Assembly (NCBI RefSeq): GCF_057098645.1
Contig: NZ_CM169472.1
Length of the DNA stretch: 64,000 nt
Reading direction: 5' to 3' (one strand)
Part shown: positions 15,001 through 18,000 of the stretch, piece after piece
Numbering within the stretch: position 1 is the first letter of the stretch
How the letters are laid out: every line of letters begins with the position of its first letter
Position numbers: made by a program

Positions 15001-18000
15001 TAATCAGTTCAAACAGACGGTGAGTTTCACGGGAGGAGAGGGCAGCGGTGGGTTCGTCCATCACCAGAATGCGGCTGTTGCGATGCAGCGCGCGGGCGAT
15101 TTCGACCTGCTGTTGCTCGGCAATGGTCAGCATCATGACTTTATCGCTGGCGTTAAACTGCGCGCCGAGGCGGTCGATCACTCTTTGCGCCTGCACCAGC
15201 ATCTCTTTACGCTGCACCAGCCCGCCGTGGGAAAGCTCGCTACCGAGAAAAATATTTTCTGCCACCGTCAAATTGGGTGCCAGCTGCATCTCCTGATAAA
15301 TCAGCGTAATACCGGCACTTAAGGCATCTTTTGGCGTGCGAATGTGAAAGGGCTTGCCGTCTATGAGGATCTCGCCGCTGGTGGCGGTATACGCCCCCGC
15401 CAGCACCTTCATCAGCGTGCTTTTTCCCGCGCCGTTTTCCCCCATCAGGGCATGGATCTCGCCAGGGTAGACCGTCAAATCCACCCCTTTGAGCGCATAA
15501 AATTTGCCGAAGGCTTTGGCAATATTGCGCATCTCCAGAACTGGCCTGCTGTTCATGGTGGACTCCTGCGAGGTTGTCGATATCAGCACTCCATCACAGG
15601 AAAGTAAATGCAAAATGTCAGAAGCCGTTCATATTTGTCATATTGCGATTTTTCTTCACGGAGCGTGATATGGCGCACCCCGGACGTCACTTTTTTGCCA
15701 GCGCGCGCGGGCGATTGCTGCTTTTGAATTTGCTGGTGGTGGCGGTGACGTTGATGGTCAGCGGCGTGGCGGTAATGGGCTTTCGTCATGCCAGCCAGAT
15801 GCAGGAGCTGGTGCAGCAGCAAACGGTGGATGATATGACCGGCAGCCTGAATCTGGCGCGCGACACGGCAAACGTGGCAACGGCGGCGGTGCGATTGTCG
15901 CAGGTGGTGGGAGCGCTGGAATATAAAGGCGAAGCCGAGCGGTTGCAGGAGACACAGCGGGCATTAAAAAGCTCGCTTGCACAACTGGCGAACGCGCCTT
16001 TAGCGCAGCAGGAAGCCGGGCTGGTGACGCGCATCATCACGCGTAGCAACGAACTGCAAACCAGCGTCGGCGGTATGCTGGAGCGCGGGCAAAGGCGGCA
16101 TCTGGAGCGCAACGCGCTGTTAAGTTCGCTGTATCAAAACTTAAGTTATCTGCGGCATCTGCAAAAAGTCACTCACGCGCAAGATGATATTTTGCTTAAC
16201 GAGATGAACCGACTAATTGTTGCCGCTATTGCCACCCCCGCGCCGCAGGCGATTATTCATCAACTGGTCGGGGTAATGTCTGCGTTGCCGACCCACAGCG
16301 ATACGCCATTGGTTAATACGTTACTCAATGATTTCAATGATGAAATGCGTAAACTCGCGCCGCTTTCTGCCGCTCTGGAGCAAAGCGATCTGGCAATCAG
16401 CTGGTATATGTTTCACATCAAAGCGCTGGTGGCGATCCTCAATGGCGACATCAACCGTTACGCCGAACAGGTGGCGACGCTCTCCGGTCAGCGTGTGGCG
16501 CAAAGTTACCAGGATTTGCGCTCCGGCGAGAGGGTGATCATGATTTTCGCCCTGTTAGCGGTGGTGATCACCGCGTTTGCCGGCTGGTATATCTATCGCA
16601 ACCTCGGCACTAACCTGACGGCGATTTCCCGCGCCATGAGCCGCCTGGCGCACGGCGAAGCGGACGTCACTTTTCCGGCGTTACAGCGGCGTGATGAGTT
16701 GGGTGAACTGGCGCGCGCCTTTAACGTTTTTGCCCGCAATACCGAGTCACTCGAACGAACCTCACGGCTGCTAAAAGAGAAGACCACGCAGATGGAGATT
16801 GCCCAAACTGAGCGGCAGGGGTTGGAAGAGGCGCTATTACACAGCCAGAAACTGAAAGCGGTCGGGCAACTGACGGGCGGGCTGGCCCATGATTTTAATA
16901 ATCTGCTGGCGGTGATTATTGGCAGCCTGGAGCTGGTGAATCCGGACTCGCCAGACGCGCCGCGAATACAGCGGGCGCTGCAAGCTGCCGAACGTGGGGC
17001 GCTACTGACACAACGACTGCTGGCGTTTTCCCGCAAGCAGTCCTTACATCCGCAAGCCGTTGAACTGAAAACATTGCTGGAAGAGTTAAGCGAATTAATG
17101 CGCCACTCCTTACCGGCAACGCTGGCGCTGGAGATTGAAGCGCAGTCTCCGGCGTGGCCCGCGTGGATTGACATCAGCCAACTGGAAAATGCCATCATCA
17201 ACCTGGTGATGAACGCCCGTGACGCGATGGAAGGGCAGACGGGAATCATCAAAATTCGTACCTGGAATCAGCGCGTTACTCGCAGCAGTGGGCAGCGTCA
17301 GGACATGGTGGCACTGGAGGTCATCGATCATGGCAGCGGTATGTCGCAGGCGGTGAAAAGCCAGGTATTTGAGCCATTCTTTACCACCAAACAGACGGGC
17401 AGCGGCAGCGGGCTGGGGTTGTCGATGGTCTATGGTTTTGTGCGCCAGTCCGGTGGGCGCGTTGAAATTGAAAGCGCGCCGGGGCAGGGGACAACGGTCA
17501 GATTACAGCTTCCCCGCGCGCTGACGGCGGCGAAAAACCTATCGCCAGCGGCAGTAGAACAGGCTTCTGTCAGCGGCGATAAACTGGTGTTAGTGCTGGA
17601 AGATGAAGCCGCGGTGCGCCAGACCATCTGCGAACAGTTGCACCTGCTGGGCTATTTGACGCTGGAAGCAAGCAGCGGCGAACAGGCGCTGGATCTGCTG
17701 GCGGCATCAGCAGAAATCGATATTTTTATCAGCGATTTAATGCTCCCCGGCGGCATGAGCGGCGCAGAAGTGGTCAATGCGGCCCGCAAACTTTACCCGC
17801 ACCTGACGCTGCTACTCATCAGCGGTCAGGATTTACGCCCCAGCCATAACCCCGCGCTGCCAGACGTGGCGCTGTTGCGCAAACCCTTTACCCGTGCGCA
17901 GTTGGCGCAGGCGCTGGGGCAAATTGAGGGATGATTTTCAGAATTTATCAAGAGGCCTGAAGCAAATGTGCTGCTATTGTGAGCAATTCTGTTCTGAATG

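Follow-up and report, generated by a model that had tools for sequence, protein, structure and literature searches.

A direct repeat between lmuX and lmvK on the EHEC island OI-167 is the published LmvR operator of the lmuX promoter

Introduction

The stretch of DNA analysed here (64 kb in total; "the window" in what follows) contains a sugar ABC transporter operon and a hybrid sensor kinase gene that are transcribed away from each other. It raises the question of whether the direct repeats located in the short region between them serve as an operator and, if so, for which regulator and for which of the two genes. A preliminary description of the same sequence had considered the repeats a candidate binding site for the island's own response regulator, given their resemblance to OmpR/PhoB-type sites. 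In this architecture, tandem direct repeats, located beside or over the -35 element of a promoter with a weak core, are bound by a head-to-tail winged-helix dimer.

Results

An EHEC island with its own two-component system

According to annotation and family searches, the window carries the EHEC genomic island OI-167 with lmvR, lmuKAIZYX and lmvK, a unit that is inserted between yjcS and yjdP/phn. The island and this gene set have been described by Yang et al. 2023 (mBio, PMC10128022). Among 5426 complete E. coli genomes the region was matched in 421, mostly O157:H7 and O145. The product of lmvR consists of a receiver domain and an OmpR/PhoB-type winged-helix DNA-binding domain and matches the OmpR, VirG, PhoB, CreB and TorR models with E-values of 1e-48 to 1e-56. 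The lmuKAIZYX genes encode a carbohydrate kinase, a ketose-bisphosphate aldolase, a D-lyxose/D-mannose isomerase, a periplasmic binding protein, a permease and an ATPase. Between the starts of lmuX (15556, minus strand) and lmvK (15670, plus strand) lies an intergenic region of 113 bp, the size given in the preliminary description (Table 1).

EDL933 and the O145:H28 strain RM13514 have the same intergenic sequence (100% identity), as do the divergent E. coli strains L082 and L083. The LmvR protein encoded in the window is 100% identical to EDL933 LmvR. LmvK is identical to RM13514 LmvK and differs from its EDL933 counterpart by a three-amino-acid indel (FND), two substitutions and the C-terminal end, and codon 4 of lmuX carries a SNP relative to EDL933. 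The window is an O145:H28-type allele of OI-167, and none of these differences from EDL933 touches the operator.

Table 1. Features of the lmuX-lmvK locus, with their positions in the window and mean pairwise identities in the 12-taxon alignment
Feature	Position	Strand	Mean pairwise identity (12 taxa)	Description and basis
lmvR (= rbfR, Z5684)	8790-9497	+		OmpR/PhoB-family response regulator, binds the operator
lmuXYZIAK operon (lmuKAIZYX in plus-strand order)	9494-15556	-		Mannose/lyxose uptake and catabolism
lmuX (EDL933_5434 / Z5691)	14036-15556	-		Sugar ABC transporter ATPase; first gene of the operon; SD AGGAG at 15567-15563
Probable weak -10 hexamer of PlmuX, TGTGAT	15593-15598	-	0.82-0.85	Predicted; 17-bp spacer from CTGACA
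Rest of spacer			0.41-0.45	
Conserved promoter-spacer segment, TTTTGCATTTA	15605-15615	-	0.93	5' part of spacer; about -29 to -19 of PlmuX
Probable -35 hexamer of PlmuX, CTGACA (5/6 to TTGACA)	15616-15621	-	1.00	Predicted; invariant in 12/12 taxa
Linker			0.52-0.57	
DNase I-protected region, -41 to -62 of PlmuX	15627-15648	-		Predicted coordinates, assuming a TSS near 15586
Operator segment of the alignment	15644-15627		0.93-0.94	
LmvR (RbfR) operator, half-sites ATATGA-CAA-ATATGA, 9-bp period	15629-15643	-		Published footprint and EMSA on identical sequence; conservation (pairwise identity 0.93)
Candidate lmvK promoter, ATGTCA (15615-15620)-18 bp-extended -10 TGtCATATT (15636-15644)	15615-15644	+		Sole sigma-70-like candidate; lenient scan; hypothetical
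Flank on lmvK side			0.32-0.36	
lmvK (= rbfS, Z5692)	15670-17934	+		Hybrid sensor histidine kinase/response regulator, divergent from lmuX; SD GGAG at 15660-15663

The repeat and its statistical weight

The plus strand of the repeat region reads ...AAAATGTCAGAAGCCGTTCATATTTGTCATATTGCG..., in which TTCATATT (15628-15635) is directly followed by TGTCATATT (15636-15644). Common to both units is the 7-mer TCATATT, found at 15629-15635 and 15638-15644 in direct (same-strand) orientation, and a further TGTCA occupies 15616-15620, which places it 20 bp upstream of that at 15636. The adjacent direct repeats and the extra upstream TGTCA noted in the preliminary description are therefore both present. 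The helical-turn spacing ascribed to the repeats has to be corrected, as their period is 9 bp and not 10-11 bp. Read from 15643 to 15629 on the minus strand, the sense strand of lmuX, the repeat is ATATGA-CAA-ATATGA.

By sequence statistics alone, the repeat goes only weakly beyond chance. A 7-mer repeated at a period of 9-12 bp was seen in 1.7% of dinucleotide shuffles of the 113-bp region (7.2% for a 6-mer), and the 15-mer ATATGANNNATATGA and the 16-mer GTTCATATTTGTCATA each occur once in the window. The match at 15629-15643 (minus strand) is also the unique exact copy of ATATGA-N3-ATATGA in the window, and operator-like matches with up to two mismatches were found 11 times elsewhere (3.8 expected), in AT-rich patches such as 56406-56487. 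Repeats of this kind are common, with 22 such 7-mer repeats in the whole window compared with 14.2 +/- 3.7 in shuffles, and one could thus regard this one as an AT-rich repeat that arose by chance and lacks a function of its own. We rejected this reading, whose probability we regard as negligible, since it is contradicted by a published footprint, EMSA and ChIP-seq and by a sharp island of conservation across 12 taxa. It is because of this conservation and the published footprinting, both described below, that we take the repeat as a real feature.

The repeat is the published LmvR operator

Yang et al. mapped the transcription start site (TSS) of lmuX by 5' RACE and observed that LmvR, in a buffer containing acetyl phosphate, shifts a 240-nt lmuX promoter probe in EMSA (PMC10128022). 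In their DNase I footprint, LmvR covers 22 nt of the lmuX promoter, from -41 to -62, which contain ATATGA-N3-ATATGA, and LmvR binding was lost when this 22-nt region was deleted from the probe. The same study reported ChIP-seq summits for LmvR at EDL933 5215274/5, a 695-fold increase of lmuX upon LmvR overexpression, and the abolishment of mannose/lyxose induction of lmuX in lmvR and lmvK deletion mutants (PMC10128022). Transferred to the window, the primers of the 240-bp EMSA probe map to 15548-15787 and the ChIP-seq summits convert to 15625/6.

Because the window agrees with EDL933 in the entire intergenic region (100% identity) and in LmvR, the repeat is the published LmvR operator of the lmuX promoter, that is, the same object as in EDL933, already known under two names. 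An OmpR/PhoB-type direct-repeat operator for the island regulator, as the preliminary description had proposed, is thus supported by footprint and EMSA data on identical sequence. The binding experiments with phosphorylated regulator that it had suggested as a check have already been published with a positive outcome (LmvR with acetyl phosphate, PMC10128022). Nothing contradicts LmvR binding at the operator, and we are highly confident that the repeat is the element through which phosphorylated LmvR activates the divergent lmuXYZIAK operon.

It had also been suggested to look for the repeat motif upstream of the regulator gene. This search gave no comparable repeat upstream of lmvR (8300-8800), where the best matches had at least 3 mismatches out of 12 and a single perfect half-site is located at 8496-8501, on the yjcS start codon. 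EMSA binding of LmvR upstream of lmvR and autoregulation have nonetheless been reported (PMC10128022); the lmvR probe used in that study maps to 8419-8635 of the window.

The operator is conserved across genera and anchored to lmuX

A single scan with LmvK retrieved orthologous divergent lmuX-lmvK loci in 11 further genomes, from which a 12-taxon Enterobacterales alignment was built. The 11 genomes comprise Citrobacter (two), Pseudescherichia vulneris, Escherichia sp. ESNIH1, an Enterobacteriaceae isolate, Leclercia, Enterobacter, a soil MAG, Cedecea, Serratia plymuthica and Acerihabitans. No LmvR orthologues were found within the 3-kb flanks of the related loci. In this alignment, the operator and CTGACA form a conserved island between flanks of about 32-50% identity, with an invariant core, TATGACAAA-N-ATGAAC, and zero indels. 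The downstream edge of conservation, at 15627, coincides with the predicted -41 edge of the footprint.

The distance from the operator to the lmuX ATG is 68-74 bp in every taxon, whereas that to lmvK ranges from 27 to 232 bp, with GC-rich palindromic insertions on the lmvK side in several taxa; the operator is therefore anchored to lmuX. The conservation of the operator and CTGACA across genera and the constancy of this distance are new here. The alignment was also considered for a CRP site, TGTCA-N8-TCATA, a candidate that was discarded because of an incorrect spacing, the absence of a TCACA half and, in all 12 taxa, a C in place of the critical G.

An activator-dependent lmuX promoter

Since the 22-nt footprint must contain both repeats, the TSS of lmuX can be confined to 15581-15588, and we infer a position near 15586, which fits a promoter composed of CTGACA, a 17-bp spacer and TGTGAT. 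With this start site, CTGACA would sit at -35 to -30, beyond the published footprint, and the operator ends 7 bp upstream of it. An exact search of the window for the published RACE primers found none of them. A consensus scan for sigma-70 promoters and terminators over 15400-15800 gave zero matches, and a lenient sigma-70 scan returned a single candidate, on the plus strand, and nothing on the minus strand. The lack of a consensus match for the lmuX promoter is due to TGTGAT, which has no A at position 2, and it fits an activator-dependent PlmuX.

In the mechanism that we propose, an LmvR dimer would occupy the two half-sites head-to-tail, at about -57 to -43, where the lmuX-sense strand reads ATATGA-N3-ATATGA. 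The operator would thereby be placed immediately upstream of a good -35 element (CTGACA) and a poor -10 element (TGTGAT). With these elements, PlmuX would need the bound activator, and LmvR, presumably by contacting RNA polymerase, would recruit it to this promoter.

The TGTCA at 15616-15620, which the preliminary description had listed beside the repeats, is present in the sequence, yet it falls outside the footprint, and its most plausible reading is the probable -35 hexamer CTGACA in reverse complement. One might instead consider that this TGTCA, and perhaps TGCAAAAT at 15609-15616, are extra low-affinity LmvR half-sites, in which case LmvR would cooperatively cover the -35 element and the spacer, as at pho boxes or at tor boxes 3 and 4. 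Such an extension could account for the conservation of 15605-15621 at the level of the operator itself (0.93-1.00), for which ordinary spacer sequence offers no explanation, and GTCAGAAG matches GTCATATT at 6 of 8 positions. We nevertheless judge it improbable, given that the published footprint stops at -41, short of this segment (which, at 15605-15615, it does not cover), that the spacings of 8 and 11 bp are off the 9-bp register, and that the invariance of the hexamer is sufficiently explained by the location of CTGACA at -35 to -30, separated from TGTGAT by a 17-bp spacer. Such an extended site would be close to the earlier three-element picture of the region.

A possible second role at the lmvK promoter

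With activation of lmuX as the primary function of the operator, its position also bears on the divergent kinase gene. Only 21 bp separate the predicted footprint edge (15648) from the lmvK ATG (15670), so that an lmvK promoter within the intergenic region would necessarily share sequence with the LmvR site. The sole candidate from the lenient scan (Table 1) has its -10 element inside the operator and its -35 element overlapping that of PlmuX. In Table S3 of the mBio study, LmvR overexpression was accompanied by a change of lmvK to 0.26-fold (3.9-fold down, padj 2.7e-16), making it one of only two genes that were down-regulated genome-wide, an effect that was not discussed there (PMC10128022). 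These observations have led us to consider, tentatively, that the operator is bifunctional and also lies on the lmvK core promoter, which would extend the activation of lmuX by LmvR and not replace it. It is possible, though we would not favour it, that LmvR~P or polymerase bound at PlmuX excludes polymerase from PlmvK and throttles the kinase as a negative feedback, similar to the action of TorR at the divergent torR/torC region.

Several points weigh against this extension. When mannose or lyxose was supplied lmvK was "not significantly induced", with no repression reported (PMC10128022), and riboflavin, described as an activator of this system, led to a 3.0-fold increase of z5692 (lmvK) (PMC9860305). 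Moreover, the candidate promoter is below the consensus threshold of the stricter scan, lmvK lies up to 232 bp away in other taxa and may use another promoter, and the candidate elements share positions with the operator and the -35 element of PlmuX, an overlap that accounts in full for their conservation.

Discussion

The direct repeat in the lmuX-lmvK intergenic region is the operator of LmvR and, as such, the cis-element through which, in EHEC O157:H7 and O145:H28, the use of mannose and lyxose is linked to a horizontally acquired two-component system; type III secretion is a further target of this regulator, and all of this is published. Our work shows in addition that a reader who is given nothing but sequence can recover a real operator, and it draws attention to the down-regulation of lmvK upon LmvR overexpression as a previously undiscussed observation. 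Taken further, one may speculate about a two-way switch, in which LmvR~P would turn on lmuX while blocking the only available lmvK promoter of an overlapping face-to-face pair, resulting in negative feedback on the kinase. In such a scheme, which we consider doubtful as a whole, the equally conserved segment 15605-15615 would belong to the second promoter or be bound by a further factor, and the tor-like half-sites would leave room for cross-talk with TorR.

A second line of work (Liu et al. 2022, PNAS, PMC9860305) has described Z5692/Z5684 as a system that responds to riboflavin, named RbfS/RbfR, and the mBio paper mentions neither riboflavin nor the Rbf names (PMC10128022). The physiological signal is disputed, being mannose/lyxose in one study (PMC10128022) and riboflavin in the other (PMC9860305). 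The footprint of RbfR at the ler (LEE1) promoter is TCTCACATAATTTATATCATT, 21 bp at -94 to -73 (PMC9860305). We found that its reverse complement contains ATATAA-ATT-ATGTGA, which matches the lmuX operator at 10 of 12 positions with the 9-bp register kept, a score reached by 1.2% of shuffles. The mBio paper predicts a different site at ler, ATTTTA-N3-ATTAGA (PMC10128022). The ler footprint supports the LmvR motif with data from an independent laboratory, and through this single motif the present analysis links the LmvKR and RbfSR papers. The two sites are bound by the same regulator (Z5684), under another name, in the same 9-bp register, whereas at ler the half-sites are degenerate, the promoter is a virulence promoter, and the proposed signal is riboflavin and not mannose.

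Among known systems, the lmuX operator can be compared with the tor boxes, for which we used the consensus CTGTTCATAT, taken from PMC9239176 and the K-12 sequence. Both are made up of direct repeats that share the core GTTCATAT and are bound by an OmpR/PhoB-family regulator, both lie between divergent genes beside the -35 element of the activated operon, and the partner kinases are TorS-like hybrid kinases. Within the operator, CCGTTCATAT (15625-15634) agrees with the consensus at 9 of 10 positions and TTTGTCATAT at 7 of 10, and between GTTCATATTTG and the K-12 torC box 4 region the identity extends over 11 nt. LmvR and TorR share 36% identity, both having RT(I/V)DVLI-RLR in the aligned C-terminal segment, and the similarity to TorS and TorR was noted in the PNAS paper (PMC9860305). 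This resemblance might suggest another OmpR-family regulator, notably TorR, as the main or an additional user of the site, an idea that seems very unlikely to us in view of the geometry, the dependence of lmuX induction on lmvR and lmvK (PMC10128022), and the nature of the island as a self-contained unit with its own regulator. The decamer match is thus found at lmuX and the 10-bp tandem period is not: the tor region has four 10-bp boxes with a 10-bp period (boxes 1 and 2), as compared to two half-sites with a 9-bp period at lmuX, and the boxes are read along the activated operon in tor and in the opposite direction relative to lmuX.

LmvR therefore remains the regulator to which we assign the operator, and the site is, finally, to be compared with pho boxes and OmpR sites, with which it has in common tandem direct repeats beside the -35 element of a promoter with a weak core. 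The period of the pho boxes is 11 bp and they replace the -35 element, whereas the lmuX operator has a 9-bp period and retains a near-consensus -35 element, CTGACA, downstream. The direct orientation of the half-sites and the location next to the -35 region agree with the OmpR/PhoB family, while the half-site period of 9 bp, invariant and without indels in 12 taxa, differs from the usual 10-11 bp and counts as a point against the operator's assignment to LmvR-dependent activation. Given the experimentally shown function, this period marks a variant geometry of the OmpR/PhoB-type operator and not non-membership in function.

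Sequence conservation and variation around the LmvR operator

Within the inferred spacer of PlmuX, the lmuX promoter, lies the segment TTTTGCATTTA, whose conservation across the 12 aligned taxa (0.93) is on par with that of the operator of the OmpR/PhoB-family regulator LmvR. This segment falls beyond the edge of the published LmvR footprint, and we recognised no match in it to any known motif. On the other side of the operator, GC-rich palindromic REP-like elements (GGGAGAGGG/CCCTCTCCC) are inserted upstream of the divergent kinase gene lmvK in several genera, widening the operator-lmvK gap from 27 bp to up to 232 bp, while the lmuX side is unaffected.

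Over 151 bp around the operator, a C/G SNP in lmuX codon 4 is the sole difference from the reference strains EDL933 and RM13514; the window encodes Arg at this codon, which by our reading would be Thr in both references. At 15670-17934 the window carries the O145:H28 allele of LmvK. A tandemly repeated FND tripeptide in its periplasmic region (repeat unit 9 bp) is one copy shorter than in EDL933, two residues are substituted (E359A and S556C in EDL933), and the C-terminal ends of the two proteins differ. In the annotation of RM13514 (O145:H28), lmvK is directly followed by a fragment of a GNAT acetyltransferase pseudogene, a possible remnant at the island's right-hand junction.

Coordinates of features in the window and in related or comparison loci
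Feature	Locus	Position	Detail
Conserved segment	window	15605-15615 (-)	-29 to -19 of PlmuX
lmuX codon 4 SNP	window	15546	C/G
FND repeat difference	window	about 16330-16345	
LmvK C-terminal end	window	about 17920-17934	
GNAT pseudogene fragment	window	18075-18278	
Operator-like cluster	window	56406-56487	AT-rich, intergenic
Small ORF start	window	56488	
REP-like insertion	L004, lmuX-lmvK locus	about 2840-2975	
REP-like insertion	L008, lmuX-lmvK locus	about 2880-2975	
REP-like insertion	L010, lmuX-lmvK locus	about 2770-2995	
tor-box-like operator DNA	window	15625-15644	
torC box 4 region	L084, K-12 torC	5027-5039	

Other operator-like sites and published regulation

The window overall holds 11 matches to the operator pattern with at most two mismatches against 3.8 expected, an excess that is probably a composition effect. 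Three overlapping two-mismatch matches form a cluster directly upstream of a small ORF. At ler, whose promoter lies outside the window, the reverse strand of the published RbfR (LmvR) footprint matches ATATGA-N3-ATATGA at 10 of 12 positions (Liu et al. 2022, PMC9860305), and the ler site predicted by Yang et al. (2023, PMC10128022) differs from the site within this footprint. The two papers assign different signals to the same kinase, mannose (PMC10128022) versus riboflavin (PMC9860305), and the former mentions neither riboflavin nor the Rbf names. Riboflavin induced lmvK 3-fold (PMC9860305). Upon LmvR overexpression, lmvK fell to 0.26-fold; across the genome only one other gene was down-regulated (Table S3, PMC10128022), and that paper left both out of its summary and did not discuss them.

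Similarity to TorR tor boxes

Neither paper on LmvKR/RbfSR (PMC10128022, PMC9860305) mentions a similarity between the operator and tor box DNA. The operator DNA is similar to the tor boxes of TorR: CCGTTCATAT of the operator matches 9 of 10 tor box positions, and GTTCATATTTG shares an 11-nt identity with the K-12 torC box 4 region.
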